Position numbers and translations under genes: made by a program. A stretch of 62,968 bases of DNA, counting the filler, from Jimgerdemannia flammicorona (lineage: Eukaryota), in NCBI GenBank assembly GCA_003990765.1. It is 2 parts of 2 records of this genome, joined end to end, with 100 filler letters (N's around TTAATTAATTAA, not from the genome) between each part and the next. Parts side by side here need not be neighbours in the genome. Positions count along the whole stretch, not along the records: positions 31,539 to 62,968 come from RBNJ01000399.1; 1 more part is not named here. One strand, 5' to 3'. The notes under the pieces were generated by a model. It was not told where the DNA came from. It made no database searches and worked only from the letters and a program-made list of their open reading frames with translations. Positions 5,208-62,500 of this stretch are shown here, one piece after another (the first letter of the stretch is position 1; each line of letters opens with the position of its first letter).

Positions 5208-5239
5208 ACTTGGTGTCCATTGACTGGTGATTCAAGACA

Positions 5240-31361: not shown

Positions 31362-31365
<4 letters not shown>
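27763..31365 (-). mobile_element. Gypsy A, 5' half (gag, Zn knuckle, protease, Cys-rich insert, dUTPase N-terminus)
   Basis: IFAGYSKKDPREFL (gag, ~30940), CLYCR*FGYYTTEC (~30090), KILIDIEAAIC (decayed LIDTGA, ~29420), GCPFCLKRYKCSEH (~28870); reads into dUTPase across the TA target. Confidence 0.85.
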
Positions 31366-31438
<73 letters not shown>

Positions 31439-31538
31439 NNNNNNNNNNNNNNNNNNNNNNNNNNNNNNNNNNNNNNNNNNNNTTAATTAATTAANNNNNN
31501 NNNNNNNNNNNNNNNNNNNNNNNNNNNNNNNNNNNNNN
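31439..31538. other. Assembly gap / artificial contig spacer
   Basis: 44 N + TTAATTAATTAA (stops in all six frames) + 44 N. Confidence 0.97.
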
Positions 31539-37756: not shown

Positions 37757-38589
37757 TTTAAAGCAGGACGATTTTCTCGATCAACGCAGGTCGACTTTCT
37801 CGATCAACGCAGGTCAAGTCCTTTAATCCGGTAAGGGGCGGCGGCGCCGGACGCCCGTTGTTGAAGCGCGATGTGACGAGACCGGAAACCCCGGTTGTTA
37901 AACCCGATGATACAGTCGAGCCGGAGGAACCGCTAAGGCCAGGAGATTTAAGAGTGGATTTGGAGCCGAAATAGCGATAAACAGGTGACCATGGACAATA
38001 CGATTTATAATTCAAATTCTGTCTTTCTCTGTTCTTTATTTTATTATATTGCATGCGCCATCATGGCGAGGCTTGTACATAATAGTAATGGGTCCTTAAA
38101 AACGTAATTCGCGTTACTTGGTGTTGTCAATTATTCTCTACTCTGCGTGAAGGACGTGAATTTCATTACGCAATTGTTAGATTTGGGACGACGATTCCCG
38201 GTTGAGGAAATAATGGAAACAAAAGTGACACAAGTACAGTGACAGCCAAAACTGTAATAATGTTTTGTTATTTTTAATATATAATTATATTACAGCTCAA
38301 ATATAAATTTTATTAAATTCAGATTTTAACCATTAATAATATAGTATTTAAGCTTTTGAATAATAAAATTTTTATTTTATTTAGATAATCATAGATGTTA
38401 ATATAACCATTTTAAGTTATATTATAATTGTTACAGTTTTGACCCTTACCAGCTTCTAAATCTGTTTGAATTCACAGGTTAAGCTATAATAACTTTACTA
38501 CAATATTATTTCAGATATTTTTTAACACTTTATGGTATTTTTACTCTTAATTTCAAGCAATGAAAAACTTTCCATTGATATTTATAACT

Positions 38590-38850: not shown

Positions 38851-40054
38851 GATCTGTGTAATATGTTTTCCAATTTAATTAACTATTTGAACTCTGATGA
38901 GTATAATAAGTATGATATAAAAAACTGAATCAGATAACTGAAACTAATTCTTAAGCTTATATAATAGGTTTAGATTAGATGATTGTATTTTTAGTCAATA
39001 ATAGTCCAATCTTTATATAAAGGTTTAATCTTTATATAATTAGTTATAAATATATATTATACTTTGTTAGAATTACAAGTTAATATATATCTATATAACT
39101 TTATACCAATTTGTTTTATATCATTTATATATATATCATTATTTATAGTACCTAAAAGTATATAATTTGTATTATAAATAAATTGCTTCTTCTGTTTATC
39201 AAAATATAAATTATGAGCTCTAGTTAGTAGCTAGAAACTCCTCTAGTATATATACTATATTATAAGATATATGAGTATACCAAGTATGAGCACTCAGTAA
39301 TAGAAAACATAGTCTCATTATAAATATGGTCATTACTAGTCCAGGTGTGATAAAGAAGTCCACTAATAGTAATAACAAAGTTTCCTCTAATAATAGAGAT
39401 ATACAAGCTCTCCTAGGTGATAGAAGTATAAAGTCCTCTCTGGTAGCAGAAGATAATTATGACAAAGGTGCTCACTCAGATATTTAAGGCAATTATGAAG
39501 CCCTCCTAAGTAGTCAAGATAATTATAATAATAAGGATACCAGTTGATGAGACTGAAAAAGTCAGTATATATAAGACTAGCAATGAGATCAATAAGAACA
39601 AACTAAAATCTAAGATCTAAAGTATAAGTGAGATCAATAAGACTGATAAAATCAGTAATATAACCAGCAATGAGATATAGCTAATAAGGCTATAGAAAAG
39701 GCCAATGAGTTTGAATGATGAGTTAGAAATACTCTATCAATAAGTAATATTTATAACACCTACCTCCTACAATATCAACTGATCTATGATAAATATAATA
39801 ACTAAAGTGAGATACTTTTCAGACTACCAAAAGCCTCTTATATTATATATATATTATATATATATTATATATATTATATTTCTATAGATATTATAGTGCA
39901 TATTATATAGATATTATGGAATACTTTTTAATTTATGAAAATTTCTTAGATATAAAATTTCTAGTTATAATTTGAATTATATGCAGTTCTAGTTTTTTTA
40001 CATATATTATATATTGTTTTTATTTTACTCTAGTTTGTATTTTATTATAGATTG

Positions 40055-40085
<31 letters not shown>

Positions 40086-40607
40086 GACATATATATCTCC
40101 TTAAGTAAAAGTATTGGGATTATAAGTTGATATATATCCATGTGACTTTATACTAATTCATTTTATATTATTTATATATCATTATTCACAATATCTAAAA
40201 GTATATAATTTATATTATAAATAAATTACTTCTTCTATTTGTCACAATATACTTTAATATAGTAAGGTAGCAAAAGTTGTTTCTTTTACTTAATATATAT
40301 CTTTAAACTGAGATATATATATTAAATCAAAGGCTAAATAACTGTTAAATTATATATTAGTATTCTTAGAGATGAATTACTTTAAACAATTAATTATTAT
40401 AATTTTAATCATATTTTAACTAAATAATAACTTCAAAAAAAATCCAAAAAGCATAAAAATGATTCAAAAATAACTTGATCTTTATGAAATAATATCATTA
40501 TAATACTTCTTTTTTATATAGTTTACTATCATTATACTTACATATAATCTTATATATAAATAAATCAGATTGTAGTAAGTGAATAATATAGTTACAAATG
40601 TTAATAG

Positions 40608-42114
40608 TATCATGTAGTGGTCGCTGAGTCCTTCAAATATGCCAGATTCTCTTCAAGATATATCTCTTAGACTAACTCAAGTTTGTTATAAGCAAGTTCT
40701 TATTGGAGTGTCTTCCCAAGGTCTTATAGTTCTCAAACTTCTTATCTTTAACTGTCTTGTTATCTCTTAGATTGCTTGCAAGGGATTGTGTATAAGTGAA
40801 ACCGGAACTGACTTTATTTCAGAGGAAATAAGAGGAATAGTTATACAAAATATAATTTAATGGTTGCTAAGATATAAAGCTAAATATAAATTCCAATAAC
40901 TAAAACTACTAAGTTCCAGAGTTGGTACTGATGGTTGTACAGGTTCAGGATGCTGGCATTATTTAGTATCATATCAAAATGCCAGTGCTGGAACAATTTC
41001 GCATTATCTCAGAATACCAGTGCGGGCATTATCTAGTATAATAAAGAACTTGGAGCAGAAAGTTCAGGACCATGGGGGCTTCATCATCATCATTACTGAA
41101 GGAGATGAGATCTGTGAATTCATCATGTAGGTCACACATTTTGCATATGTCATGTGCTTCGGGTATGTCACACAGGATGATGTCATTGCTGATGATGTCA
41201 TCATGTTCGGTGGGAAAATTGGGAACAAGATCTGGAGCTCTCCAGTTTATGAGGTTCTCTTCCACAAAATAAGGGACAAATGTAGGGTCTTGGAGAGATC
41301 TAACCTAGATGCTTGGGCCTTGGAATACTGAGATCAATCCTTGCAGGAATTGGTCTGAGTTGTCCTGAAGGATAGAATGCCAGAAGTCTTCTACTTCTTC
41401 ACTATTGAGGGTGATAGTGGACTGGGCTTCTATAGCCACTCTGGCTTCTAGTGTATTGATATGGTAGGATGACAGGTCTCTGAAGTCTGAGACTCTAACA
41501 TACTCCAAGTTGGAGATCGACTATGGTGCATGTCTGAAGATCTGATGGATCTTCCTAGTTGTCCTTATTTCGCATATATCCATGGGAGTGGCATCTTGTA
41601 GCTCTTGGGTGCTGGCCTGTGGAAACTTCCAGCAGAGGAGGTTTCCTATTTTGTACTCCTGCCACATTTGAGGCATTTGGTAGCAATGGTGATTCTTGTT
41701 TCTATTTCACAGTAGTAGAGAATAAAGTGATAAGGGTCTGCAGTACCCAGGTTGACACTAGGAGTCCTTCTTGAGCAGGTCCCCATGGCTCTTCTGATGT
41801 CTTGGAATATTCTTTCCTCAACTGAGATACCTTGGTGATTCCTTGATCTTGAGGTTTGGCAGGCAGCAGGCATTTTGTTTGTAGTAAGTCTTTGAGCTAT
41901 TTTGAGATTGGTAGTTCTTGTTAGTTGCTGCTACTGTGGTTCCTTGATCCTTCTTTTATATTCTTCAGGATGCTTGTGCTGTAGTCACAATGACTCACAG
42001 TTGGTCATCATTGCTCATCTCATATGTCATAAGATCTTCTTGTGCTTCAATCTGGTGGCTTGCAGGAAAGACTGTCTCCTATACTGATGTCATCATTCTG
42101 AGGTCACCATTACA
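40608..42114 (-). repeat. 3' LTR of B2; includes U3 ORF copy 3 (41873-41029)
   Basis: Direct repeat of 47818-49361. Confidence 0.94.
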
Positions 42115-42430
42115 TCTTCCTCCTGAATAAGAATCTTCTTGAGTATCCTTATTTATTGGTCCAGTCCTGAAAAATTTGCTGATTCCATAACCTCTGGCAA
42201 GGGGTCGAAAAGTGGTGTTTATGGGCTGATGTCTTCTCTTTGTATTTTGGTGTAATGGTGAAGAGTCACTCCCTTCATATAGAGCAAGGACCTGATTCTG
42301 ATCTTGACCAATCAGTTGATGGTTCAAACTCCTCTAACTTCGAAAGTCTCACAGATGAGTAGTTGCCAGTGTCATATCTCTTAGAGAATGGTCTAGACAG
42401 ATAGCCTGCTGGTCATGGGACATGCTGTTA

Positions 42431-43678
42431 TGATTTGCAGACTAGAACCTTGTAGGCAGTTATCATGTTTTGCTTCTCTTATATAGGTTTGTGATACTTC
42501 TTGAGTCTGTTCCTATATACCATAGTAGGCAGTATAGTCCCTGAGATTTTTCTAAGCCAGAAGATAGTTCCCTTGATATCTTGTATGTAGAAGGGTCCTT
42601 CCCATTTGGGCTCCAGTTTTCATGACCATGAGGCTTCTACTATATTTCAATATAGTAGAACCTTTTCTCTGATTCAGATGGGTTCTAGGGCCTTGTGATT
42701 CTTTTCTGCATTCTTCCTTATCAGTGCTTGTAACTTAGTGATATAATCTTCAGCCTTCTACCTGATTTGGTGTAGTCTCTAGATTTCTGCATCAAGCTAT
42801 CTCTAAGTTAGGTCTAGATTTGTGGCTGAGGTTCCATCAGAATCTTCTTCTCCAAAGAGCAGCTCTCTTGGGGTAAAATGTGTACTCTGCAACTATATGT
42901 CTTATAGGACAGAGAGGGCAGTTGGGAGGTAGTTATCCCAATTCCCATATGTCTCTGAGATCTTCATTAGGATGTTCTTGAGGATCTTATTGGTTCTCTC
43001 TGTCTGTCCATTTCCTTGAGGGTGGTACATGGTGGTCTTGATGTGCTGGATCTTGTATTTCTGATATATTATCTCATGGAATCCATTAACAAATTCTGTT
43101 CCATGGTCTGTTGTGATTTGCTTTGGTGTCTTGTAGTGGCAGATGATTTCTCAGTATAGGAAGTCAGCTATAGAGAGGGCATTGGCTTCTTGTAATGCTC
43201 CTGCCTCTATCCATTTGGTGAAGAGGTCTACAATAACTATAATATAGCAGTTTTCTGATAGTGTTACTGGTAGTGATCTAATGATATCCATTGTGATATG
43301 GTGGAAGGGGATAGGCTCAATTCTTGATGACCTGGGTGCCTGGTCTTACTGATCTTATTTCTGTTTTTGGCACTTGTCATACCCTTTGACAAATTGGCAC
43401 AGATCTTCTTCTATCTTGGGCCACCATATGGTTCTTCTTGTCTTGTCGTATGTGTTGGTTCCTCCTAAGTATCCTTGCTCATGTACTTCCTTTATTACTT
43501 GATACTTCTTGTGTTTGGGTATTACTAGCTTTCCTTCTTTTCTGAGTATAGTGTTGCCTAATTCAAACTGTTTCTAAGTCCAGTTGATGATGGTAATTAT
43601 CTAGGGTTCGAGATGGTTGGGCATCTTCTGCTGCCTAAGGTAGCTGATTAATCCATAGTATAGCTCCTTATTTATGTT
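42431..43678 (-). pseudogene. B2 integrase, separate frame
   Basis: NKELYYGLISYL…EVHEQG…WWPK…DKCQK…YHPQGNGQTERTN…KLEPKWEGPFY. Confidence 0.9.
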
Positions 43679-46600
43679 GAATAGTCTTGATGGGGGTGTT
43701 TTGGAGTGTCCTTGTGAGTGCATCAGTATTGGTATTGGTCTTTCCTGAGTGGTGCTTGACAGTACAGTTATACTCTTGCAGTCTGTAGATCCATCTGGCA
43801 TATATTCCTTTGGGGTTCAGAGTGTGGAATAGTCAGGCAAGAGTGGAATAGTCTGTTTGAATAGTGAAGTGTTTCCCAGCTAGATAGTAGTGGAACTTGT
43901 CTACTGCCCAGACTACTGCTAAGCATTCAAGCTTATACATATGACTTATAGTTCTGTTCTGCTCTGCAGGTACCTTGGCTTGTATAGAAGATGACATATT
44001 CATGTCCATCTTTCTTCTGAGCTAGAACTGCTCTAAGTTCTATAGCACTTACATCTGTCTGCAGGATGAATTCTAGGTTCTAGTCTGGTCTTTTAAGGAT
44101 GGGTGCTTGGGTCAACCTGGTCTTGAGTTCATTGAAGGTTTCTTGGTGCTCCTTGGTCAATTCGAATTTAGTCTCCTTCTTCAGTAGCTCGTAGATAGGT
44201 GCTACAATATTGGAGTATCCTTTGATGAATCTTCTGTAGTAGCTGGCCAGTCCAAGGAAGGTGTGAACTTCTGTAGTTGTTCTGGGTCTTGGGTAGGCTG
44301 CAACAACCTCAATATTCATGGGGTCTGTGTGGATTCCAGTCTGGTTGATGAGGTGTCCTAGGTAGGTGATTTCTTGAACTGCAAACTTGCATTTCTTGGG
44401 CTTAATATAGAGGCCATGCTCCTTGAGCCTCCTGAGGGCTAGTTGTATGTAATTGATATGTTTCTGTGCAGTGTTGCTGAAGATGATCACATCATCAACA
44501 TAGACAAAGAGCCATTTTCCAATCTCATTGCTGAAGACTCTGTTCATTATTCACTGGAAACATGCTGGGGTATTGCATATTCCAAATGGTATTCGCAGAT
44601 AGATATAGGTGGCATCAGGTGTAATGAAGGCTGATTTCTCACTGGCATCTTGAGTGAGACCAATCTGATGGAAGCCTGAGAACAGATCCAAGGTGGTGTA
44701 GTATTTGGCTTCGCTTCCAAGGGTAGTAAGGATTTCTTTAATATTCAGCAAGGGCTGCCTATCCTTCTTGGTGATGGCATTGAGCTTCCTGTAGTCAATA
44801 CAGAGTCTTGGTGCAAACTCTCCAGGCTTGCTTTCTTTCTTTGGGGCTAGAACAATGGATGAGGCCCAGAGACTGATAGTTTGCTTGATGATTCCGGCTT
44901 CTTCCATTTCCTTGAGTTCGGCTTGCAGCCACTCTCTGTAGGCAAGTGGTATGGGTCTGGTTTTCTGATAGATGGGCTTGATATCACTAGTGTCAACTTT
45001 GTGGTAGTACTTGAGTTCTTGATTGTGGATATCCCTGAAGTCTGTAGCAAGTACTCCTTCATTCTGGTGCAGGATCTTGAGAAGTTGTTCCTCCAGGGGA
45101 AAGTTTTCTCCAATGGTATATGTGTGCTTATTCTGGTTTTTGTCTTTCTTATGCTCAAGTTTGGTAATCTTGGTGATGGCATAGGCTCCTCTTCCAGTAG
45201 ATCCAAAGCCTTGTTCTTCTCTCTTGGTCTTGATGAGTTCAATGGCTTCTATGATCTTTGGCTTCTTGACTTCATGGATCAGCATCTGGCCAATCCTGTC
45301 ATGCTTCTTGACTTCGAAGGGGGTGGTGTGGTTGTGATTTCTGACTATGAGGAAGATCTCACCAGTGTAATCAGGGTCAATTACTCCTCCTTCAACTGAG
45401 ATTTTGCTTTTGACCAGACTGCTCCTGGTCTTGATAATTCTGGTATAGTTTTCTGGTAACTTGACTCCAATTCCAGTGCCAAGTAGAGTGGTGGTCTGTG
45501 GTTCAAGGGTAGCATCTTGAATACTGGCAAGGTTTATTCCTATGACTCCTTCAGTCTTGTATTCTGGGATCTTGGCTTCAGAGTAAAACTTCTTGACCTT
45601 GAGGGTGATGTCTGATTCTTGTTCCTCCTCATCATCACTGTCAGTTTGAAGCTCTGGAGGCTGGTCATCTTCTTCAGCTTTTCTTTTTGCTTCAGCAGCT
45701 TCTTGCTCATATTTCTGTTGGCAGATTTTCCTGACTTCACTGATACAGGACCAGCAGTCATTCAGGTGTTTGGAGCAGTACATTCTAGTACCATGGGGGC
45801 ATCTTCCTTGAGGGGCATAGCCATCGATGATCTTGTTGTACCACTGCTCATCTGTGAGCTTGGGTGTCTTGTTCTTGTTCTTGTTTACTGAGTGCATGAA
45901 GACCTCTATATCTTCTTCATCTCCTTCCTCTATGTCTGGTAGGACTCCTTTGTGGACATTGATAGAGACTCATACCTTTCTTCCTCTATAGTTGATCTGC
46001 ATCTTCTGGGCATTAAGGTCAATGATGGCCTTGGCCTTGTGAAGCTATTGGTTGCCAATGAGGATGTCATAGTTGGTAGTACTTATAACAATCACATCTA
46101 CTGGAATGGTAGCTCCTCCTATCTTGATGGGGACTTCTTGGATTTTGCCAAGGGGGGTAGCTCATGTACTATCTGCTGTGATATAGACCATCTTGGTGGA
46201 CTCTTCAATGTCTCAACCTAGGCAGTCAATTGCCTTCTTACTCATGAGGCATCCTCTAGCACCAGTATCAATGATAGCATCAAAGTTACAATCTTCAATC
46301 TGACATAGGGTATAGGCTGATGTCTTGTACTGGTCTTTGGATTCTTCACCTGAGTTCTCAGATTCTTCCTATGCATTGTGAGCTTCTACAATCTTGTACT
46401 CTTGATTCTTAGTGGTAGTTGCAAGTCCTACTCTCAACTGCTGTCTGAAGGCAGGGACTTCAGCTAGCTGTCCAAAAGTGACATTGATCTTCTGTTCCTT
46501 GAGGTTCTTATAGATGTCATACTGGTGGATCTTGGTCTTGCACAGCTTCTGTTCCTTCTTGCTTTCACTTTTTTCTGAGACTGGAGTAGTGCCTTCAATA

Positions 46601-47790
46601 ATTTGGCAGGCAGCTTTGTCTAACTCCATGTCTTGATCAATCTCCTCAGGTTGGGTCTTGCTTTGAATAGTGACAGCTGGGGTCTTCTTTGGTCTTCCAA
46701 CTGGCTTACTGTTGCTCTTCTTGTCATAGGGCTTGGACCAGGTTCTGGTACTTTCAGTAGTAGGGTAGAATTTGAGCTCCTTATAGTATTCTTTATCATC
46801 AGTGTCACTGATCTCCTCAATGACTACTGCATTGATTTGTTCTCTGGTTCTACTAGCATTGCTTGGTTGGGCTTTGCATCTTGTTTTGGTCATGCAACTT
46901 TTTGTATAGTGGCCTTCTTCTCCACATCTGAAGCAGGTGATATTGCATTCTTCTATAGCAGCTGCAAATCTCTGCACTAGTCTCCTGTTGGTACTTCAGA
47001 CTTCTCTAACAACATTACCAAGATATGCAGTCATCTCAGCAAACTACTTGGCAAGTTCTTCCACTGGGTTAGCTTTGGCTGTCTTAGGGGTAGGTGGGGT
47101 TGGTTGTCTGTTTACAACTGTGGCAGATAAGATACTAGTTGGCTTTGATGGCTCTATCTTGATGCCAGTTATTTTCTCTATTGAGTGTTCGGCAGAGTGT
47201 CTGGTAGTCTAATATCTTTGTACAAAGACCACTTTCTGATCAAGGGTCAGTACAGCTGGGGTAGACCAGATTGCTAGGGTAATTTCAGGGTGAACTCCTT
47301 TGAGGAAGGTTGAATCCACTATTTGTTTCTTGAGGCAGTCATCATAGCCAGCCAAGACAATCTGGTGGCAAATTCAGGTATAGAATGAGTTGGGATCTTC
47401 ACTAAGTCCCTGGCAGATAGTATTGAGTTGATCCTTAAGAGCTTGCTTAATCTCTTCGATATAATATGTTGTTCTAAGGAAGACCTTCATGTTGGCAAGT
47501 TTGGCTGTACCAGCATCAGCAATGATGGCTGCATTGAACTTGTCTCTGGTAGGTCCTCTAAGGCTGACTGGTAGAAGGGCCAATTGAGCATCTACACCAA
47601 GGGCTCATATGGTAGTGAATTGTTCAAAGTCTTCAATGAAGATTAGAATTGACTCTTCAGTAGTATATCTATAGAATGTGGGGGGACACATTTCCATCTT
47701 ATCTTGAATTCTTGCAGAGGTGACTCTTGTAGTCAGGGTAGTTGTTGTGAGGGTTGTTCATTTTTTAGCTTGAAAGTGAGGGATTCATCT
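43668..47790 (-). pseudogene. B2 gag-PR-dUTPase-RT-RNase H polyprotein, interrupted by stops
   Basis: ORF-track pieces 47374, 46369, 44551 and 44080 share one frame (gag through RT); CFRCGEEGHYTKSC, IIDTGA, dUTPase (~45190-45610, REEQGFGSTG), RLCIDYRKLN, VYVDD. Confidence 0.94.
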
Positions 47791-47817
47791 TGAATCACCA
47801 GCCAATGGGCACCAAGT

Positions 47818-49361
47818 TGTCATGTAGTAGTTGCTGAGTCCTTCAAATATGTCAGATTCTCTTCAAGGTATATTTCTTAGACTAACTCAAGTTTGTTATA
47901 AGCAAGTTCTTATTGGAGTGCCTTCCCAAGGTCTTATAGTCCTCAAACTTCTTATTTTTAACTATCTTGTTATTTCTTAGATTGCTTGCAAGAGATTGTG
48001 TGTAAGTAAAACTGGAACTGACTTTATTTCAGAGAAAATAAGAGGGATATTTATACAAAATATAATTCAATAGTTGCTAAGATATAAAGCTAAATATAAA
48101 TTCCAATAACTAAAACTACTAAGTTCCAGGATTGGTACTGATGGTTGTACAGGTTCAGGATGCTGACATTATTTAGTATCACATCAAAATGTCAGTGCTG
48201 GGATAATTTCATATCACCTCAGAATATCAGTGCTAGTATTATTCAGTTTTATATGAGAATACCAGTGCTGGCATTATCTAGTGTAACAAAGAACTTAGAG
48301 CAGAAAGTTCAAGACTATGGGGGCTTCATCATCATCATTACTGAAGGAGATGAGATCCACAAATTCGTCATATAGGTCACGTATTTCATATATGTTACAT
48401 ACTTCAGATATGTCATATAGGATGATGTTATTACTGATGATATCATTACATTTGGCAGGGAAATCAGGAACAAGATCTGGAGCTCTCTAGTCTATGAGGT
48501 TCTCTTCCACAAAATAAGGGACAAATGTGGGGTCTTGGAGAGATCTAACCCAGATGCTTGGGCCTTGGAATACTGAGATCAATCCTTGTAGAAATTGGTC
48601 TGGGTTGTCCTGAAAGATAGGATGCCAGAAGTCTTCTACTTCTTCACTGTTGAGAGTGATAGTGGACTGGGCTTCTGTAGCCACCCTGGCTTCTAGTGCA
48701 TTGATATGGCAGGATGACAGGTCTCTGAAGTCTGAAACTCTAACATACTCCAAGTTGGGGATCAACCATAGTATATGTCTGAAGATCTGATGGATCTTCC
48801 TAGCTGTCCTCATTTTGCATATATCTATAGGAGTGGCATCTTATAGCTCTTGGGTGCTGGCCTGTGGGAACTCCTAGCAGAGGAGGTTTCCTATTTCATA
48901 CTCCTGCCACATTTGGAGGCATTCAGTAGTAATAGTGATTCTCGTTTCCATTTTGCGGTAGTAGAGAATAAAGTGATAAGGGTCTGCAGTACCCAGGTTG
49001 ACACTAGGAGTCCTTCTTGAGTGGGTCCCCATGGCTCTTCTGATGTCTTGGAACATCCTTTCCTCGACTGAGATATCTTAGTGATTCCTTGACCTTGAGG
49101 TTTGGCAGGCAGTAGGCATTTTGTTTATGGTAAGTCTTTGAGCTATTTTGGGATTGGTGGTTCTTGTTGATTGCTGCTACTGCAGTTCCTTGATCCTTTT
49201 TTTATATTCTTCAGGATGCTTGTGCTGTGGTCACAATGACTCACAGTTGGTCATCATTGCTCATCTCATTTGCCATAAAATCTTCTTGTGCTCTGATCTG
49301 GTGGCTTGCAAGGAAAGGCTGTCTCCTATGCTGATATCATCATTCTAGGGTCACCATTACA
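47818..49361 (-). repeat. 5' LTR of B2
   Basis: TGTAATGG…CATGACA followed by PBS. Confidence 0.94.
48274..49119 (-). pseudogene. U3 ORF copy 4: 282 codons ATG to TAA without frameshift
   Basis: Five internal TAA/TAG codons, each at a position where the sister LTR has CAA or TGG. Confidence 0.8.
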
Positions 49362-50001
49362 ATAGAAAGGTTTTTCATTACTTGAAATTGAGAGCAAAAA
49401 TATATAAAGTAGTGAAAAATGTCTAAAACAATACTATAGTAAAGTTTAATAATTATAGCTTAACTCAATAGTATACTGTAAATTCAAACAGATTTAAAAG
49501 CTGGTAAGGATTAAAACTGTAACAATAATAATATAACTTAAAATGATTATATATTAACATCTATAATTAACCAAATAAAATAAAAAAATTATTATTCAAA
49601 AGCTTAAATACTATATTATTTATGGTTAAAATTTAAATTTAATAAAATTTATATTTAAGCTATAATATAATTATATATTAAAAATAATGAAACATTGTTA
49701 CAGTTTTGGCTGTCACTTTATATCGCATGTTCTATATTTCCTAGTGACGCTGTTTGCCTTTATTACCTTGGGGGTATTATTCAAAATACGCTTACGTCGG
49801 CTTCAGCAATTTATATTTTTTTCTTCCACACGCCTCGTCGAAACCGGTTCTACGAAGCAGAATATACATGTCACCGTCGTCACCTTCAGACTGGGCCTCC
49901 ATCTCGACCTATAGAGAAGTAGTACCGCGCATTGGTATTTCTTCAATCGCTCAACGTTGTGAAAGGATGTCTTTCATACCCAAACATTTTTGTCCCGTGC
50001 C

Positions 50002-50560
50002 TTAGACACAACTGTTTCTGCTTGGTCCCGCCGTAATCGAGGTACGCTTGCGCGTTTCGGTTGAAGTCATCGACGTGTGCTTGGTTTCCGTTTCAGTTGC
50101 AGTCACAGGCGCTTGGCTTCCGTTGCTCTCGCTGACGTACGCTTGGCCTCGGTTACGGTCACCGATGTTCCCTTGGCTTCCGTTGCTCTGGCCGAAGTGT
50201 GCTTTGATTCGGTTTCCCTCGCCGAGGTGCGCTTGGTTACGGTTGCCGTCACCGAGGTGTGCTTGGCTTGAATGGTGTTCTGGATAGCGATGTTGCACGA
50301 GAAAACATGCGCGGGCGATTCGTAGTCGGTAACGCAACTGGAAAACAGCTTGTGGACATCAAACTACCTCCCGTGTTCCGTTCTTCGTGCAATATATCGG
50401 ACAGTGGATCCAGCAGATATCGCTCGAAGAGTTTATCCAGATGGTGTTCGTCCGTCACATGTTCTCAAGTACCTTTTGTCCAATGAACTTTATGTCTTCA
50501 AGACGGTGAAGGTGTGCCATCGCCGCCAAAGATTCTGACAGGCTCGCTATTAGCCATTTG
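50002..50560 (-). pseudogene. Frameshifted gene remnant with 30-bp / 10-aa Thr/Ser-rich repeats (K[HR]TSxxxTE[AT])
   Basis: About 8 repeats; Thr codon varies synonymously (acc/act/aca/acg) in the KHTS frame; frame change at ~50108. Upstream extent uncertain. Confidence 0.55.
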
Positions 50561-51104
50561 CAGTGGTGGCGGTGACTTTGGCTGACGCGGAGACGTGAAT
50601 GATCTTGGAGTAGTGGCGGTCGACGTATTCCTTGAGTTGAACATGAGACAAGAACACAAGCACTTGGCTTGTAAAATGAGGGTTGTACGCGAGTTATATA
50701 TAATATTAGACATGTGCCCCCCTGGCAATCCAATTATTCTATATACCTCTTCGGCTCCATCAAGTGGCCAAACCTACCGCACTTGAAATACCATTCTTCG
50801 GTAACCTCCTCTAGGCCCTCAATGTTTGCAGACGGGCTGCCGTAGCTGCTCCGAACTGTGGACGATGAGTTGGAGGGCGAGAGCGAGGGCTTGGCGAAGC
50901 TGATGAAGCCTCCTCAGGACTGAGCCGGTGGACGCGGGCCTTCTTTATGGATATTCTAGGTACGGCGACGCGTGCCTGGAAATTTCGATGACAAACCGTT
51001 GCATCCTTGCTCAAGGGAATCTTCAGCTGGCTTTAAAGCAACCAAAACGGTCCTCAGAAGCCACGTGGCGTGCTGGAGGGACTACGCCCCTCAGCCACGC
51101 GGCT

Positions 51105-53490
51105 GGAGAGGTATAACGGTAATGAGTGAGATTTTAGGTCTTTTAAAAAAAATAATTTAAAAAAATAAAATGTAAAGAATGTCACTCCCTCCCCGAAGGT
51201 CAGGCCCGATACGATCGAGTCCACTACGCATCAAGGAAGGGCTGCATTGTTCCTCCATTACTTACCTTTACTTACCCGTAAAGGAACGCGTAGCAACCGG
51301 CCCCTCATTAGCACAACTGCTGAGCAATCCGGTGCATCATCGCAGACTCTAGACCAAATCCATCCTGCTGACATAGACGGACAGAACAGAAAATAGTGAA
51401 AATAATACTCATCTTTTGCAAAGGAATGTTTTGAAGGGGTTTCGCCAGACACACGACTAGAAGAGAGATATATATAACCGTAACAAGTGAGTTTTTTTGC
51501 TCTTTTAAAAGAAAATATTTCAAAAAATAATATATAAAGAATGTCACTCCCTCCCCGAAGGTCAGGCCCGATACGATCGAGTCCACTACGCATCAAGGAA
51601 GGGCTGCATTGTTCCTCCATTACTTACCTTTACTTACCCGTAAAGGAACGCGTAGCAACCGGCCCCTCATTAGCACAACTGCTGAGCAATCCGATACATC
51701 ATTGCAGACTCTAGACCAAATCCGTCCTGCTGACATAGGCGGACGGAATAGAAAATAGTGAAAATAATACTCATCTTTTGCAGGGGAATGGTAGGAAAGG
51801 GTTCGTAAGCCATGCGACTGGAAGAGATATATAAAACCGTAACGAGTGAGTTTTTTTTGCTCTTTTAAAAGAAAATATTTCAAAAAATAAAATATAAAGA
51901 ATGTCACTCCCTCCCCGAAGGTCAGGCCCGATACGACCGAATCCACTACGCATCAAGGAAGGGCTGCATTGTTCCTCCATTACTTACCTTTACTTACCCG
52001 TAAAGGAACGCGTAGCAACCGGCCCCTCATTAGCACAACTGCTGAGCAATCCGATACATCATTGCAGACTCTAGATCAAATCCATCCTGCTGACATAGAC
52101 GGACGGAATAGAAAATAGTGAAAACAATACTCATCTTTTGCAGGGGAATGGTAGGAAAGGGTTCGTAAGCCATGCGACTGGAAGAGGTATATAAAACCGT
52201 AACGAGTGAGTTTTTTTTGCTCTTTTAAAAGAAAAAATTTCAAAAAATAAAATATAAAGAATGTCACTCTCTCCCCGAAGGTCAGGCCCGATACGACCGA
52301 ATCCACTACGCATCAAGGAAGGGCTGCATTGTTCCTCCATTACTTACCTTTACTTACCCGTAAAGGAACGCGTAGCAACCGGCCCCTCATTAGCACAACT
52401 GCTGAGCAATCCGGTGCATCATTGCAGACTCTAGACCAAATCCGACCTGCTGACATAGACGGACAGAACAGAAAATAGCGAAAATAATACTCATCTTTTG
52501 CAAAGGAATGATTTGAAGGGGTTTCGCCAGACACACGACTGGAAGAGAGATATATATAACGGTAACGAGTGAGTTTTTTTTGCTCTTTTAAAAGAAAATA
52601 TTTCAAAAAATAAAATATAAAGAATGTCACTCCCTCCCCGAAGGTCAGGCCCGATACGATCGAGTCCACTACGCATCAAGGAAGGGCTGCATTGTTCCTC
52701 CATTACTTACCTTTACTTACCCGTAAAGGAACGCGTAGCAACCGGCCCCTCATTAGCACAACTGCTGAGCAATCCGATACATCATCGCAGACTCTAGACC
52801 AAATCCGTCCTGCTGACATAGACGGACGGAACAGAAAATAGTGAAAATAATACTCATCTTTTGCAGGGGAATGGTAGGAAAGGGTCCGTAAGCCATGCGA
52901 CTGGAAGAGATATATAAAACCGTAACGAGTGAGTTTTTTTTGCTCTTTTAAAAGAAAATATTTCAAAAAATAATATATAAAGAATGTCACTCCCTCCCCG
53001 AAGGTCAGGCCCGATACGATCGAGTCCACTACGCATCAAGGAAGGGCTGCATTGTTCCTCCATTACTTACCCGTAAAGGAACGCGTAGCAACCGGCCCCT
53101 CATTAGCACAACTGCTGAGCAATCCGATACATCATTGCAGACTCTAGACCAAATCCATCCTGCTGACATAGACGGACGGAATAGAAAATAGTGAAAATAA
53201 TACTCATCTTTTGCAGGGGAATGGTAGGAAGGGGTTCGTAAGCCATGCGACTGAAAGAGATATATATAACCGTAACGGGTGAGTTTTTAGCTCTTTTAGG
53301 AGAAAATATTTCAAAAAATAAAATGTAAAGAATGTCACTCCCTCCCCGTAGGTCAGGCCCGATACGACGGAATCCACTACGCATCAAGGAAGGGCTGCAT
53401 TGTTCCTCCATTACTTACCCGTAAAGGAACGCGTAGCAACCGGCCCCTCATTAGCACAACTGCTGAGCAATCCGATACATCATTGCAGAC
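51105..53490. repeat. Tandem array of ~360-bp units (about 6.5 copies), high identity, CpG intact
   Basis: Anchor AAAGAATGTCACTC(C/T)CTCCCCG recurs at ~51175, 51536, 51896, 52256, 52619, 52979, 53327. Confidence 0.97.
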
Positions 53491-53493
53491 GCA

Positions 53494-55020
53494 AAATCCT
53501 CAAAGCCGGTACCAGAAGATTTTAACAAAGGAAACTGACCTTTTTGACTTTACGACCCATGTTGGTCATCGATGTGAACCTCTCTGTTACTAGCCAGGGC
53601 TGATATTTGCTGTGGAAATTTTGCTGTGTGAAAGGTATAGAGCCGGTCAGTACTATACACCTACTAAGTCAATAGAACATAAAGCCGCGCGCTCTTTCAC
53701 GCTCCCCACAGAACCAAAGTGACTGCAGGTGTGGTCTATTATGTGAATCACGCCGTCCGCATACCACCCCCCACAGCGACCGTAGTAACAGGTGTGGTAC
53801 GGCCGAACGCTCGCAGACAAATTGCCTACGAAACGTTCCCCACAGAGATCGCAATCACTGTAGATATGGCCCTAGCAGTCGCGCGTTGGCACCCCTAAAT
53901 GCTTCCCACACAAACCGAAGTCAATGCAAGTGTGACTGCCGCGAAATCCTCAAAGCCGGTACCAGAAGATTATAACAAAGGCAACTGACCTTTTTGACTT
54001 TACGAACCATGTTGGTCATCGATGTGAACCCCTCTATTACTGGTCAGGGTTGGCAATTTTCCCTGTGAAAATTTCGCTTTGGAAAGATAATTAGAGCCGG
54101 TCAGTACTATACACCTACTGAGTCAATAGAACATAAAGCCGCGCGCTCTTTCACGCTCCCCGCAGCACCGAAGTAACTGCAGGTGTGACCTTTTATGTGA
54201 ATCACGTTGTCCGCATACCACCCCCTACAGTGACCGTAGTAACTGCAGGTTGCAGGTGTGGTACGGCCGCACGCTCGCAGACTAATTGCCTACGAAACGT
54301 TCCCACAAAGACCGCAATCACTGTAGATCTGGCCCTAGCAATCGCGCGTTCGCACCCCAAAACGCTTCCCACACAAACCGAAGTCGATGCAGGTGTGACT
54401 GCCGCGAAATCCTCAAAGCCGGTACTAGAAGATTATAACAAAGAAAACTGACCTTTTGACTTTACGACTCACGTTGGTCATCGGCGTGAATATTTCTGTT
54501 ACTGGCAATGGTCGACGATTTTCTCTGTAGAAATTTGGCTATGGAAAGGTAGAGCCGGTCAGTACTATACACCTGCTGAACCAATAGAACATAGAGCCGC
54601 GCGCTCTTTCACGCTCCCCACAGAAACCGAAGTCAATACAGGTAGGACGCTTCGCTGCCAAATCCTCAAAGCCGGTCATACTGGAAGGTTATAACAAAGG
54701 GAACTGACCTTTTTGACTTTACGACCTGTTGATCATCGGTGTGAACCTTTCTGTTACTGGCCAGGATCGGCGATTTTTGCTGTAGAAATTTTGTTGTGGA
54801 ATGGTAGAGTCAGTCAGTATTATGGGTCAATAGAACATAAAGCCGCGTGCGCTTTCACGCTCGTTACAGAAACCGAAGTCAATCAGGTATGACACCGCGA
54901 AATCCTCAAAGCGGCCATACTGGAAGATTATAACAAAGGAAACTGACCTTTTTTTAGATTTGCAAGTTTAGCAATGACGTTACGACCCATGTTGGTCATC
55001 GGTCTGAACCTCTCTGTTGC
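53494..55020. repeat. Second tandem array: 5 copies (periods ~450, 463, 254, 240 bp) with nested ~66-bp subrepeats
   Basis: Anchor AAATCCTCAAAGC at ~53494, 53944, 54407, 54661, 54901; subrepeat CCCACAGAAACCGAAGTCA.TGCAGGTGTG. Confidence 0.93.
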
Positions 55021-55246
55021 TGAATTTCTAGCTCACTCACGAATGCGGATCGAGAAATTCGAGTAGTGGCATCGGATTTCTTGATTGATAGAATGTCGTC
55101 CAGTTTTTCAAGCTCTATTCGGTAACAGGCTGAATACAGAAACCCAAATGATAGTGGCAAAAACGAAGCGCACTCATTAGAGAGCAAGACTATAAACCAT
55201 AAAAATACGAAAAAATAGAAATAGAAATAAAAAGCGTGTCAGTAAG

Positions 55247-55290
<44 letters not shown>

Positions 55291-55293
<3 letters not shown>

Positions 55294-57660
55294 GATAGTT
55301 AGATTAAATTATGAGTATTCTTCAGTAATCTATCTTAATATTCATAAAGTTGACCTACTTTTATCTGCTAACATAATTGCTATTACCTCTGTATTTTCAA
55401 ATATATAAGTGCTTGAGATTGCTATTTAGTATACTAGACTATCTGATCTTACTACTTATATAGCAAGTTTTACCAAACTTTATACTCTTAAGATCAGAAG
55501 TTCTGTTACTAGAGAATTAGATAAGAAGATCAAGACAGAGCTAAGTATCTTTAATAAAAAATAGTATTATTAGTATATATTAAATAGAATAAAATATTTA
55601 TAAAGAAATAGATTCTATTCTTTTATATATATTATCAGATAGCTTAGCCTCTGATTTTTATTTTTATTTTATATATAATAATATATATTATAGATAGATA
55701 GCTAGACAAAAATATAGAGTATTTACTATTTTATATTAGAATCATATTCTTAATCTTATTACTATTATTTATATTTATAGTAGTCTACTTATATTTCTTA
55801 ACTTATTTTACTAGTAGTTTATATATATTATATTTGTATATATTCTTGTTATACTGTAGATTAGTTATTTATTTATATTCAATACTTAATAGCTTAGATT
55901 TATTCTATACTTGTGAATATTTTGATATATTGTATTAAAAGATTTTATATTCTAATAGTTTATATATTAGCTATATCTATAAGCTTTTATATAATACTAA
56001 TAAATTATAGTAGAATGATAAAGACTATATAACTATATAATATATCAATTATACTTCATAGTTATTAATATAGATAATATCTAGTAAAGTTATATCTTAT
56101 CTATATATTAAAGCTATATATATTAGTAAGATATACAAAGACTGTATTCTCTTTTCATCTATCTTATATATATATATGTATATATCTAATCAATACTCTT
56201 ACTACAGTCATTAAAATAATACTATACATCTCTTCATCTAAACAAGTATATACTATATAATATCTATTTGACAATTCCAATCTTTTTCAGATCATTCTTC
56301 AGACTGGCAAGAATTATATATATAATATAGTACTATCTAATATAACTTAACTATATTTATCAACTGATAGAAAAAGATATTCTAAAGATAGACTATAATA
56401 TACCAGCTATCTCAGATATACCCTGATAGGATAGATGTTTTAATCAATATCATTATAGTATAGTATAAGTAGCTCTATATTTAATAAAATACATAAGGTA
56501 GATCAGTAACTAATAACATAGCAATATCTTAATTAGACTGAAATATATATAACTATTTTGAGTATTCTTGTGATAATCTAGTATTACTATGATATAGATT
56601 TCTCTGAACTCAACATTAGTTATTTGTAGATATAAAATCTCCTTAATCTATAAGAGACAGAGAAATGCAAAGATATATATATATTGGAGAATAGTTAATA
56701 TAGAATTTACTAGTAATATATAATAATTCTTACAATTTCTATATATATACTGATATGCTCTCATATAGTTTATAATTACCATTATAGTAGTTATACAGAT
56801 ATCTCATATTCTCTATCTATAGTATATATATAAACTTAGGGTACTTGCTTATATCCCTTTGTCTGTAGATAAGATCATCTTTTAAAATCATTTAGCAGAC
56901 AAATTAAAGTTTGAAAAAAATGATTTTTTGAAACATTGTTTTTCTGTTAAAAATATATCTCGATTTGTTTAAAAACATTTTTTTTTTTTTTGTAAAATTT
57001 TTACCAAAGATAGAATTATTATATAAAAAATTATTGGTAAATTTTTTTTTAAAAACTATTATGATTTTAAAAGTTATAAACTTTTAAAATCTTGCCTCTA
57101 AATATAGGTGCAAAATAGTCAAAGGGATATATACTTTATATTACTAGAGACTACTCATATATTACTTAACTAGAATAGACTGGAATAGATTACTAATCTA
57201 TCTATCCTGACTTCTGCTATAGTAGTATCTTAGAGACTCAATATCAAGACTATTATAGTGAAATAAAATAATAGTCTATATTTTCATTATACTATTATAC
57301 TTAAAAGGAGAGATAAAAGACTATTTAATAAATAACTCAGAAGAACCAGTCTCTACAATATATGAATATACTGTTAGCCCCTGGTAATTCAGATGTTGGC
57401 CATGATTGTTCTTAGTATACTTGTACTTATATTTGTAAAGAATAAAGATAATAATATCTATTAGAGTCTATTCTGATAGAATATTAAAATCAAATACTCT
57501 TTGCTGAAGTTTGATATATCAATATTTGCTAAATCACAGATATTTATTCCAATATCTGCAGCTAGCTAACAGTTAGGCATATGGTCTATACAGATTTATT
57601 TTTAATATAATATATATATAGCTCATATTGTCATTATATAATTTGTACAATATACTGATC
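55291..57660. mobile_element. Very decayed AT/TpA-rich repeat-derived sequence, family not identified
   Basis: Near absence of CpG and excess TpA as in the other transposons; no motif I can assign with confidence. Confidence 0.4.
56855..57126. mobile_element. 272-bp MITE with piggyBac-like CCCTTT…AAAGGG ends and ATAT flanks
   Basis: ATAT|CCCTTTGTCT … AGTCAAAGGG|ATAT; AT-rich noncoding interior that differs from its flanks. Confidence 0.6.
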
Positions 57661-58586
57661 CATTAGTTATATAGCATAGTCTTCAAGATCAATAGATAAT
57701 TCATCAGCCTCACCCTCACTATTCACAGTCTGATTCTCTTTTAATAGCAAGGTCTGAGCCAGTTTGGCAGTAGACATATATGATGACTGTATGTAAAACA
57801 GATTACAGAAATATAATTTGTTTTGATCTATCCTCATTGTATACTGTAACAGTTGGATGCTCAATCCAGCCATGGCAGTATTTACTACCAGATTGATATT
57901 GTCTGGCAAGGCACCAACAGAATGGGGGCATGTTTTCTGTGCAGTAAAGGAGGAGGATGGTGTATGTCATACATGGTCTTTTAAAAATAACGCGGACTGT
58001 GAAAATGGACTGGGTACTAAAATGGATATTGCTTCGCCACCTGTTTGGAAAGCAGTCAAACATGTCCAGACATATATGACTGCTTTTCTGGGGAGTGGCT
58101 TGGATTGGGCGCATAGGACGCATGGAGCTTAAAGGCAGGACCAAAATCGATTCTGTGGTCCCGTAGAGAGAGTGGAAGAAAAGAGACAGCACTGGTGTCA
58201 CGCAGTACCCTTGTAAAACCTGATCTTCTATATTGGATTAGAAGACAAATGGCTTGGTATAGTGCAGACTGATTGGGGGGCATATAATACATTCAACAGA
58301 AAATAACTTCGGGTGATGAATGTTCAGTGCAGTAACACAACTGATGTTATTAATTCTATTCAATTCTGTCACACGTCAATCCACCACCAATACCCCATTT
58401 GAATTACTAAGAACTCATTGATATATAGCACGAAACCCTGAAGTATGGTGGCACTCACTGGTGCATTTTTTTTACACACACATCAGTCATGATATTTATT
58501 ATATCTCTTCTGTTATGTCGAACACTTGTTTAAATAACATAGCTATTTCAAATACAAAAAAGCTTTAATGCTCGAGCTTAAGCTCC

Positions 58587-58937
58587 TTAATTATGGGTAA
58601 AGGAGAACTCGGCAACATTTCGTTCGACCAGATGGATCCAGGTGGCTGTACCCGGAATATCCCCCGAAACAGTTTTGCCATGAACCGTAGCAATGGCCTT
58701 GTAAACATTGTTATAATCTACACTCGTAGCATTCTTCCCAGCGCGAGCATCGATATCTTCTGTTAGTTGAGCAAGAGCACAAGCATGGTAATGTTAGACG
58801 CTTAAATATAGTTTCTGATATATGTTAGACATTAGAATAAGGTTAACAAAGTTACCATTCCAAATCTCGGTCCCATCAGGAAGTTTCAAAGAGATCCGTG
58901 CGGGGTGCGGAGTCGTGTTCAGGCAGTAAATATCCAT
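58587..58937 (-). CDS. Small two-exon hypothetical protein, 84 aa (MDIYCLNTTPHPARISLKLPDGTEIWNEDIDARAGK…EFSFTHN)
   Basis: Exons 58937-58856 and 58759-58587; 96-nt GTAACT…CTAAC…CAG intron joins in frame; TATATAAA ~50 nt upstream; CpG-intact DNA. Confidence 0.72.
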
Positions 58938-58983
58938 GATGGAATAACTTGGTTGATTGGAAATCGATAACTCTGAGCAAGCC

Positions 58984-58991
58984 TTTATATA
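58984..58991 (-). promoter_or_regulatory. TATA box of the small gene
   Basis: TATATAAA on the minus strand ~50 nt before ATG 58937. Confidence 0.55.
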
Positions 58992-59092
58992 TGAATTTGG
59001 GAACTTTGAAATTTGATATCGGGTGATGTGACCAGTATTCATTTTGACCTACTTTCGACTTTGAGACCTGGTGCGAAGGTGCGGAGCTGATG

Positions 59093-59190
59093 GTCACATA
59101 GCAACAAGCAGGGGTGTATACATAGCAACAAGCGATCAACTGGCTTGTACAACAGATAGTTACATAGCAACAAGCGCAACAAGCAGGGTG
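59093..59190. promoter_or_regulatory. Three ACATAGCAACAAGC repeats, RFX X-box-like
   Basis: GTCACATAGCAAC (59093), GTATACATAGCAAC (59116), GTTACATAGCAAC (59159). Confidence 0.4.
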
Positions 59191-59551
59191 TATATTTGTG
59201 ACTGGTCATTTTTGTAATGCAAACAACTGCGCAATACCCAATGCAGACCAAGCCGGTCGCTATCAAGATAAGATCCATTCACCATTGTTCATAGGTTGTA
59301 AATGTGGCTGGCCATTTGTCCATCCTTGGGAATATCTGCAATAGGGTGTCGCCATTCGGTGTATCGAAGGGGTGTTTGTTGTGTGGCTCCGTGTCTGGTG
59401 TGACAGTTCCACAAAAATTGATCATGGGATATGCACGGAATATACTGGTTCTAATTATATGGACTAAGAAAAGCATTGCGGGGCCACTGGGGAGGCTTGA
59501 AAAGGGGCTGTGGTGTGCGGATTCCTGAGATTTCCTATCCCTGGTAAGACG

Positions 59552-62500
59552 TATATATATAATTATCAGTAATTTCTTTTTGTGAGTTACTAGCTTCTGT
59601 TCTGCTGGTAATTGTTTTTGTAACTTGAAGGCAATAGGATGATATTCTTTTTTATTATCTTGTAACAAGACTACTATAATAGTGAAATTTGAGACATCAG
59701 TGGTAACTGTGAATTTCAGATTTAAATTAGAATTTTATAATACTGGAGTATTGGTCAGGTAGTTCTTGAGTTCTTGGAGTACTTGTTGATAAAAGAAGTC
59801 TCAGGTATAAGATATATAATACTCTGAGTATAGTACCTTCTTCATTAGATTTATATAAGGCTTAGTAATTTCAGAGAAGGTTCTGATAAAGTAGTAATAA
59901 TAGCTGGCTAAGTCTAGAAAGAATCTGAGTTCTGTAAGATTTGCTGGCTTAGACCATTATTGGATTATCTTTATTTTATATAGATCTACCTGGATTTCTT
60001 GGGCAGAGACAATGTGGTCAAGATATTTGACTTGTTTCTTAAAAATTCATATTTCTTGAGTTTGATAAATAACTTATATTCTTGTAGGATTTCCAAAATA
60101 AGATAGATATGCTTGAGGTATTCTTCTTTAGTTATACTAAAGATCAGAATGTCATCAAGATATACTAATAGAAAAATAAAAAGTTAGTTCTTGAATATCT
60201 TATTTATAAGAGTTTAGAATATTATAGATATATTGGTAAGACTAAATACTAGAACTAGAAATTTATAGAGTCTAAAGAGGGTTATAAAAGTAGTCTTGAG
60301 GATATCTTCTAGCTTAATTCAAATTTGATAATATTCAGACATAAGGTCTAGCTTAGTGAAGAACTTAGCATTCTTAAGAGTATTAAATATCTAATCAATG
60401 AGAGATAGTAGATATCAGTTCTTGACTATAAGCTTGTTGAGTATACAGTAGTCTATATATATTCATAAAGTTCTATCTTTTTTCTTAACAAAAAGAACTA
60501 GTGAGCTATAAGGAGACTTGCTAAGCTAGATGACTCTTCAGATAAGTAGTTCTTCTAGTTCTTTTTTAACTGCTTCTATCTTAAGAGATGATATACAGTA
60601 TATATATTTCTTGAATAATATAACTTCTAGAGTCAGTTCAATTTTATAGTCTACTTTTTATATAAGTAATAGGCCAGATAGCTTGTCTGAAAAAATATCC
60701 TTGAATTCTTCTAGCAGTAACTTGATACTTTCATTAATTAAAAGTTTCTTATCTTATTTCTTAAGATAGATAATAATGATAAAAGTATATATATAATACT
60801 TTCTTAAGTATCTTCTTGTATTTTATTGCTGACAGAGTAGTAATCTGAGTTTTGTTTACTAATTTGTCTAACTTGATAGTAATATTAGCTCTATCTTATA
60901 ATAGAGTAACTTTGTTTCTATATTAATCAATATTCAGATTGTACTTAGTAAGTTAGAGGTTTTCTAAGATCAGATTATAATCTCCTAGAGATATGATATT
61001 GAAGTTAACTTATTCTCAATATTTCTAGATCTTGATAGATAGTTTGGTAGTAATTAACTTAATAAAATATAGAATATCATCTGTTATAACTACTTTTTCA
61101 TTCTGGGTACAGACTTGGTAAAGATCTTGAGGGTTTTAATAAGGTTCTGATTGATGAAGTTACTAGCTACTCTGCTATCAATAAGTACTTAAACTTCTTT
61201 TCTCTTAACTGGTTCTTTAAAGATGAGTATTGCTTGAGCTTGGTTTATAGATAGGCTTACTACTTGGTCTGTACTTCTAAAGTCTTTCTGATCTCACACA
61301 ATTGAGAGTAGTTCTTGGACTTCTACATATGATCTTGAGTTAGCTTGCTTCTTCTAGAATTATTTGTGCAATTTTGTCTCCTTTCTTAACTATGTAGTCT
61401 TGATCCTTCTGATTAATAATTAGAACTTAAACTTGTTCTCAATAGTTTAGATCAATGATATCAGCACTAATATCTAAATGATAATTAATGCTAAGTTCTA
61501 ATCTGGGTATAATTCTTACATAGTGGTCTTCTGAATATTGAATTACAATTTCAGTAGATATTAGGGGGTTTTTTTTTCATAGAAATAGTAACTTATTTGA
61601 TTGAATACAAGTTAAGACCAATGGCTCTTTCTGATTGATATTGAGGAATCTGGATCTTTGAATATAGCTTCTTGATCTTAAGTTCTAACTAACTAGTAGT
61701 GGGGTTGATAAGTATATCTTTGAACAATACAGTAACTGATCTTGCAGGTTTGCTTATCTTTTTAGAATATTTGGTTGTAATATATTCTATTTGATAGTAG
61801 AAGAAATATACTTCTGACTTCTTTAAACATTCTTTCTCTTTAGAAGTGAGTTTGGTATTTTTCTTATTTATAGAATTTAAGTCTATTGGGGCTGATTCTA
61901 CAGTTCTAAGCTAGTTTTTGTTATAGTTTTCAAAGTGATTCTTCTTATAATATTTTAGTTCAAAGTAGTAATTATAGATAGTAATATCAAATCTATTGAC
62001 TATTCTCATAATATCTTTAAAGAATTCTGACTCTTCTAGTTCAACCTTGACTTATATGTTTTTCTTTAAACTTTTGATATAGTAGTCAATTTTCTTATCT
62101 TTATAACTCTAGAAGAATTAATAGGAATTATATATTATATATAACTTTATATAGACTTGAGTTGCTTAATATTTACTAGTCTATCCTGATAGTATTAGCA
62201 GACTTGAACTACTTATAAAGAACTTCCTTGAAGGCTGTCTAATCTTCTATTCTATTTTTTAATAAATAGATATAATCATATATAATACAATTGTACTATC
62301 AGATAGCAGTATTTCTCAGAGAAAGATGGTGGTAAATTAGACTTATATGTCTTCTTTTATTCTTATAAATTCAAAGTATTAGTCCAATTAGAAGGTCCAG
62401 ATATCAGTAGATAGTCTTTCTTAGTAGCTATCAAAGGTATTTGATTTGAATGACTTAAAATTAATAAGTATAATTATAAGATATACTATTGTATTTTTTG

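Follow-up and report, generated by a model that had tools for sequence, protein, structure and literature searches.

The closest described systems to the locus reported here are the minisatellites and short satellite arrays. Like them, it consists of head-to-tail units of a few hundred bp; these are 93–97% alike, their two subtypes recur in a set order, and the copy at the edge is diverged. However, there are only 6.7 copies, the island that holds the array is CpG-normal and next to a gene, not heterochromatic, and the two subtypes differ within 43 bp only (the cassette), with no clear three-unit periodicity outside it. A second point of reference is the primate SVA, a composite retroposon that bears a VNTR. 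The island is likewise an ORF-free chain of repeat blocks with an AATAAA hexamer and a long pure poly(A), but its repeat units are much larger, and it lacks a target-site duplication, an identified partner LINE and a second copy in the window (the whole stretch of DNA that was analysed, 62,968 bases). In ribosomal DNA intergenic spacers, several tandem sub-repeat families abreast in non-coding, CpG-rich DNA are the usual architecture. Adjacent tandem-repeat families in non-coding, CpG-retaining DNA are found here too, but there is no rRNA or 5S gene within the 63 kb and transposon relics flank the island. Finally, Dscam-type exon arrays and box C/D snoRNA clusters also combine a constant frame with one variable segment and splice-like borders. 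Here, by contrast, whole units including the would-be “introns” are near-identical and the motifs occur on both strands; no C/D pair was found around the cassette, and neither a fold signal nor a match to an RNA family emerged. As regards genome defence, repeat-induced point mutation (RIP) in Ascomycota senses repetition as such.

Jimgerdemannia flammicorona is a soil fungus of the Endogonales (Mucoromycota). The window joins two contigs at an N gap (31439–31538) and transposon sequence makes up the bulk of it, including two copies of an LTR retrotransposon with a dUTPase domain within pol. The CpG observed/expected ratio was close to 1 in two blocks only. One of them corresponds to a Kelch gene (35–38 kb, 0.99–1.20), with seven annotated introns of 49–141 nt and a Kelch-repeat exon (35812–36237) that is 100% identical to a named J. 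flammicorona protein. The other is the island that contains the array, with values of 0.94–1.11 across positions 50001–55000. As a reference, the ratio was 0.00–0.19 in the TE-rich regions 1–31000 and 39001–49000, and 0.30–0.32 in two AT-rich intervals between TE-rich stretches, while a reverse-transcriptase/RNase H fragment at 58–60 kb was partly preserved (0.48–0.68). A preliminary description of this DNA had held that the dispersed transposons have lost nearly all their CpGs and that the array keeps them. The ratios (~0 vs. ~1.0) bear this out, and the preserved block is the whole island, whose CpGs span 49724–55235, the nearest ones outside being at 49065 and 56961.

The island itself (49719–55249, 5.5 kb) is CpG-normal, transposon-free and ORF-poor, contains three tandem-repeat families and resembles no other part of the window in a blastn self-comparison. 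Among 51 ORFs there was no credible Pfam match at E ≤ 1, and no recognisable gene was found adjoining the array within it. The left border is an AT-rich, CpG-free repeat element of ~350 bp (49366–49718, plus strand), an inverted copy of which (38235–38577) borders the island of the Kelch gene. The two copies are 85% identical over 362 columns (blastn) and share an identical 18-nt terminus (49700–49717 on the plus strand and 38238–38255 on the minus strand; 0.04 matches expected by chance). They might conceivably be the inverted termini of a single 11.5-kb transposon, which would have divided what had been a continuous block of Kelch gene and array; their flanks carry no target-site duplication. 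At the right border there is a pure run of 42 A (55250–55291, plus strand), which begins 14 nt past the island's last CpG; an AATAAA hexamer (55226–55231, plus strand) ends 18 nt before this run. An inserted element would account for the sharp borders and for the A-run after AATAAA no less well than native DNA would. Of 140 inverted pairs in the region 49600–55400, the 25 longest include none that joins the island ends as terminal inverted repeats would. No telomere repeats were found.

Leaving aside the 360-bp array, the island holds two other tandem-repeat families. Tandem Repeats Finder detected a 30/60-bp repeat with 5.4 copies (50109–50269), of which degenerate further copies, read by eye, appear from near 50041. 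The other is an array of ~450–463-bp units (53490–55022, by Tandem Repeats Finder and blastn self-matches) made of two full units followed by truncated and more diverged copies, with four internal subrepeats of ~63 bp per unit. Tandem Repeats Finder delimited it to 53490–54633 (period 463, 86%), and blastn self-matches of 73–86% extend it to 55022; units 1 and 2 are 86% identical and the later copies go down to 73–79%. Comparison of the three families with one another and with the island's unique sequence revealed no noteworthy 8-mer or 9-mer motif in common. Of the six island sub-regions, three or more had just two 8-mers in common, one of them A-rich.

The 360-bp array extends from 51112 to 53490 (Tandem Repeats Finder and unit alignment), with 6.7 copies, 93% matches, 1% indels and a score of 3985. 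Cut at a constant 11-mer, its units start at 51177, 51539, 51899, 52259, 52622, 52982 and 53330, the last one being partial, and the spacings are 362, 360, 360, 363, 360 and 348. Most unit lengths, like their indel sums, are divisible by three; this may point to a reading frame, and hence away from a non-coding nature, although unit 1 measures 362 and all the coding tests failed. Aligned with one another, the six full units vary at 54 of 365 columns; the units are 93–97% alike. Each of them contains an AT-rich run of ~60 bp, visible in the sequence, plus a GC-rich body, and TTACCCGTAA is present in every one. The units are head-to-tail copies, with a similarity beyond chance. A 28-mer of the scaffold gave no exact matches in a prokaryote genome collection.

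The differences between units are distributed very unevenly. Between the two units of type A (1 and 4) and all four of type B (2, 3, 5 and 6) there are fixed differences at 16 columns, and 13 of these fall within columns 246–288, a span of 43 columns (binomial P=3.3e-10). The remaining three (columns 155, 157 and 206) are located upstream, up to 90 nt away, indicating that the A/B haplotype is slightly wider than the cassette. The type A cassettes are found at 51421–51463 (unit 1) and 52503–52545 (unit 4), and those of type B at 51783–51822 (unit 2), 52143–52182, 52866–52905 and 53216–53255. In the cassette region A and B units differ pairwise at 14–16 positions. Outside it, any two units differ at 4–16 scaffold positions (gap columns ignored). 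The variants of the scaffold are combined as a mosaic from one unit to the next: columns 38 and 42, for example, run x,x,y,y,x,x(,y), unlike the A,B,B,A,B,B of the cassette. The mean numbers of scaffold differences at register shifts of one to five units were 10.4, 12.5, 8.3, 7.0 and 12.0, so that a three-unit higher-order repeat is not clean outside the cassette. A third, CpG-rich cassette variant is found at the left edge of the array (~51048–51116, from alignments), in a copy whose likeness to the units wanes leftwards. At one shared site the edge copy has CACGCG, A has CACACG and B has CATGCG, and A and B appear therefore to have diverged independently from the edge copy. The preliminary description was accurate on all these points: a 360-bp period with a constant scaffold and one variable segment, a cassette of ~40 bp with two alleles differing at about a dozen positions, their succession as A,B,B,A,B,B and, near ~51070, a further variant. 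Neither cassette recurs elsewhere in the 63-kb window.

The same description had stated that no common ORF runs through the units, which is correct only in part. A minus-strand frame is open over 110 of the 120 codons of the unit consensus. In units 2, 4 and 5 the resulting ORFs measure 110, 111 and 110 aa; unit 3 has a premature stop. Substitutions among units in this frame were 6 synonymous, 17 non-synonymous and 1 stop; 27% synonymous are expected under neutrality. The period-3 signal was 0.2–0.5 over most of the array (0.2–1.3 over all its windows), to be compared with 2.3–3.5 in two large exons of the Kelch gene, and the codon log-likelihood of the 110-aa ORFs was −0.10. Searches with the 110-aa ORF among 1,835,955,588 representative proteins gave no matches at E ≤ 0.001, nor did a 121-aa ORF of the array match in a word-indexed search covering proteins of 66–212 aa, and the array ORFs matched no Pfam families at E ≤ 1. 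There is also a plus-strand ORF of 75 aa per unit with a mildly positive codon score (0.07–0.11). We rejected it as a candidate, as a 10-bp deletion in units 6–7 disrupts its frame and its variants are mostly amino-acid changing.

The two LTR-retrotransposon copies provide a measure of what happens outside the islands. They are 87.5% identical, with CpG close to 0, and differ at 721 of 5755 aligned sites, 670 of which (93%) are transitions. The dinucleotide pairs include 181 CA/TA, 106 TA/TG and 62 TG/CA, the last marking independent CpG loss in the two copies. Judging from this spectrum, the differences are a signature of cytosine deamination, which acted after the copies diverged. In the two larger arrays of the island CpG columns were only 1.5–2.5 times as variable as the others (6/35 vs. 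18/259 and 9/64 vs. 36/384). The 463-bp array is about as diverged as the LTR-retrotransposon copies and has kept a CpG observed/expected ratio near 1, which favours exemption over youth alone; the island thus looks exempt from erosion and not just young. Even so, an insertion that came recently from an unmethylated source lineage would present the same picture. Since a tandem repeat of 2.4 kb was spared, erosion seems not to sense repetition itself.

The interpretation that we favour, with middling confidence, is that the array is a non-coding repeat of the minisatellite type in native, presumably unmethylated DNA, shaped by unequal exchange and gene conversion. The array would have expanded by unequal exchange or replication slippage, which, along with short gene-conversion tracts, would also have held its units close to uniformity. 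The cassette may lie at the starting point of the array and be the one segment where two old lineages, A and B, escaped homogenisation, which would account for the pile-up of their differences in 43 bp. It was probably CpG-dense at first, as the edge copy still is. Erosion, a transition-dominated deamination of cytosine that is presumably driven by 5mC, would target transposons and spare repeats as such, and the CpGs of the array would survive for that reason; the Kelch gene would escape in the same way. A sequence-specific function of the cassette need not be assumed. The array is real and probably ordinary, with no sign of protein, structured RNA or alternative exons.

The main rival, rather unlikely in our judgement, is that the whole of 49719–55291 is one young composite, non-autonomous, poly(A)-tailed retroposon with internal VNTR blocks, similar to SVA. 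The intact CpGs would in that case derive from a recent insertion from an unmethylated and transcribed source. The position of the A-run 14 nt past the last CpG, with AATAAA ending 18 nt before it, both sharp borders and an interior that is an ORF-free series of differing tandem-repeat blocks are what such an element would present, and the partial preservation of the RT/RNase H fragment at 58–60 kb fits younger transposons keeping their CpGs. However, no target-site duplication is present: the 14 nt past the A-run are not repeated near the left border, and there is no k-mer of at least 7 nt at a plausible target-site position. Neither a second copy nor a fragment was found in 63 kb of transposon-rich sequence. 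Nor did a shared 3' end come to light: the 150 nt before the A-run are unlike the flank of the T28 run or that of the gap after the T74 run, with a best local score of 22, while shuffles had a mean of 19.6 and a maximum of 31. Besides, a purine tract bordering the eroded zone could have become the A-run through G-to-A deamination.

A role of the array as a set of cis-acting, protein-binding modules (promoter, enhancer, insulator or nucleosome positioning), whose cassette alleles would alter the specificity of binding, is distinctly unlikely. The array does lie in a gene-like, presumably unmethylated compartment beside a gene, each unit has an A/T-rich run, and TTACCCGTAA bears a likeness to the yeast Reb1 site, TTACCCG, and may be considered a candidate. 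Against this, no notable 8-mer or 9-mer links the repeat families to one another and to the island's unique sequence, and there is no recognisable gene next to the array inside the island.

The preliminary description had gone further and proposed tandem alternative exons of a noncoding transcript or an array of structured RNA genes with variable guide segments. Its observations on the sequence stand, as shown above for the scaffold, the two-allele cassette and the CpGs, and the splice-like motifs it mentioned are also present. On the minus strand an acceptor-like motif, ACTCAC...TCTCTTCYAG, precedes the cassette (the TCTCTTCCAG end) and is followed after 180 nt (B) or 181 nt (A) by GTAAGT. 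There are 12 GTAAGT sites, two each in five units and one each in two, and one- and two-site units differ by a 10-bp microduplication. An exon led by the cassette in each unit would imply introns of 180 nt, near the annotated range of the Kelch gene, and the preserved CpGs of the array also speak for this reading. But an equally good splice-like pair surrounds the cassette on the plus strand, where TACTCATCTTTTGCAG precedes it in units of type B and GTGAGT follows it in every one of the six. The presence of such motifs on both strands fits chance and leaves the alternative exons unsupported, and the “introns” are conserved as much as the “exons.”

The structured-RNA version fares no better. 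No Rfam family reached its gathering score in the whole window; in the region 49600–55400, searched by E-value, there were only two matches, both box C/D and sub-threshold, and the best scores were 19.5 bits (gathering score 38) and 19.3 bits (40). One of the two touches a single array unit (E = 2.6) and would put the cassette outside the RNA; a box C/D pair bracketing the cassette was not found. The fold z-scores of the unit were −0.10 and +0.30 on the two strands, no better than shuffles. Alignment folding of the cassette region, of low power given three variants, gave no covariation support: the terms were +1.2 and −0.86 kcal/mol, and on each strand a single sequence had one double change. 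A search for complements of the cassettes within the 63-kb window gave none for A or B, in disagreement with a guide role. Overall, the units carry no coding or RNA-structure signal, and we regard a noncoding RNA of either kind as very improbable.

Slightly less probable again, and of very low probability in any case, are two further readings, namely that the island is a displaced ribosomal DNA intergenic spacer or that the array is an assembly artefact. The spacer would explain the adjoining repeat families, but no rRNA, 5S or tRNA match was found in any of the 62,968 bases. The scaffold on which the array lies has a gap and long homopolymers, which would suit an artefact; however, the array is embedded within a contig, between flanks that are unique, and the variants of its units are consistent and phased. 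Extremely doubtful is also the idea of a host-protected, transcribed locus made of splice-bounded modules, in which the A, B and edge cassettes would recognise an RNA or DNA target elsewhere and the exemption from deamination would reflect function. The weakest alternative, a minus-strand gene with repeated exons of 180 nt (60 aa each) or with a long ORF and a 42-nt intron, is largely refuted and hardly credible. In its favour, the frame is open over most of each unit, exons of type B have 180 nt, stay open and keep phase 0 on either side, and lengths divisible by three prevail among the units (360, 360, 363, 360 and 348 in one array, 450 and 462 in the other). However, unit 1 measures 362 and breaks that pattern, exons of type A have 181 nt and contain stops when read in the acceptor frame, a 42-nt intron would be below all seven of the Kelch gene, and the premature stop in unit 3, the neutral-looking substitutions, the missing period-3 signal, the negative codon score and the lack of relatives in protein and Pfam searches described above all speak against it.

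Among 25 of the 44 papers that mention Jimgerdemannia there is, as far as titles or the beginnings of abstracts indicate, nothing on satellites or repeats. The parts consulted of a review on fungal 5mC and 6mA (PMC13297926) have nothing on repeats of Jimgerdemannia, and those of a genome-comparison paper (PMC12574304) have nothing on repeats.

Under the reading that we prefer, a non-coding minisatellite-type repeat in native DNA, the array is in itself a small and probably neutral repeat, and its value is that of a natural control. The same 63 kb contain transposons stripped of their CpGs, with 93% of their differences being transitions, and an untouched repeat of 2.4 kb with units of 93–97% identity. 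If this were true genome-wide, the defence of this early-diverging fungus would not sense repetition as such, but would follow transposon identity or chromatin state.

A single LTR retrotransposon is present in two copies, one on the plus strand (5205-10958) and the other on the minus strand (42064-47820). Their alignment covers 5755 sites and shows 721 differences, of which 670 are transitions. The dinucleotide pairs found between the copies were CA/TA (181 cases), TA/TG (106) and TG/CA (62), and CpG is practically gone from both. The mutation pattern is RIP-like and of the deamination type, in a host that is a Mucoromycota fungus. Pfam located a dUTPase domain (E=1.5e-27 and 1.7e-23) in the pol regions at 7401-8006 (+) and 44554-45969 (-), where it sits upstream of the reverse transcriptase. 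The closest database protein to this pol was an unnamed fragment with 88% identity. A reverse-transcriptase/RNase H fragment on the minus strand (59282-59734) may represent a younger transposon copy; across 58000-60000, the region around it, CpG observed/expected is intermediate (0.48-0.68).

Two long blocks have extreme GC skews of opposite sign, -0.3 to -0.5 in 11000-17000 and +0.34 to +0.58 in 18000-27000, with small AT skew in both. The Pfam search of these blocks gave zero matches apart from an RVT_1 fragment at 11932-12774 (-). Three long pure homopolymers were also found, T74 (31365-31438, abutting the N filler between the two records), T28 (40058-40085) and A42 (55250-55291), and no sequence common to their comparable flanks was found.

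The Kelch gene region spans 35408-37756 (+). The public gene model codes for a protein of 335 aa and stops at 37050, and ORFs for Kelch and transmembrane segments run on past this point to ~37756. A paralogue of this protein has 568 aa, and the public annotation is probably truncated. Sequence comparison detected an AT-rich element of ~350 bp in two mutually inverted copies (38235-38577 and 49360-49720), with no visible target-site duplication at either. An identical 18-mer terminates each copy exactly where the CpG-normal blocks, one carrying the Kelch gene and the other being the island with the 360-bp tandem array, begin or end. The Kelch block and the array island may formerly have been contiguous.
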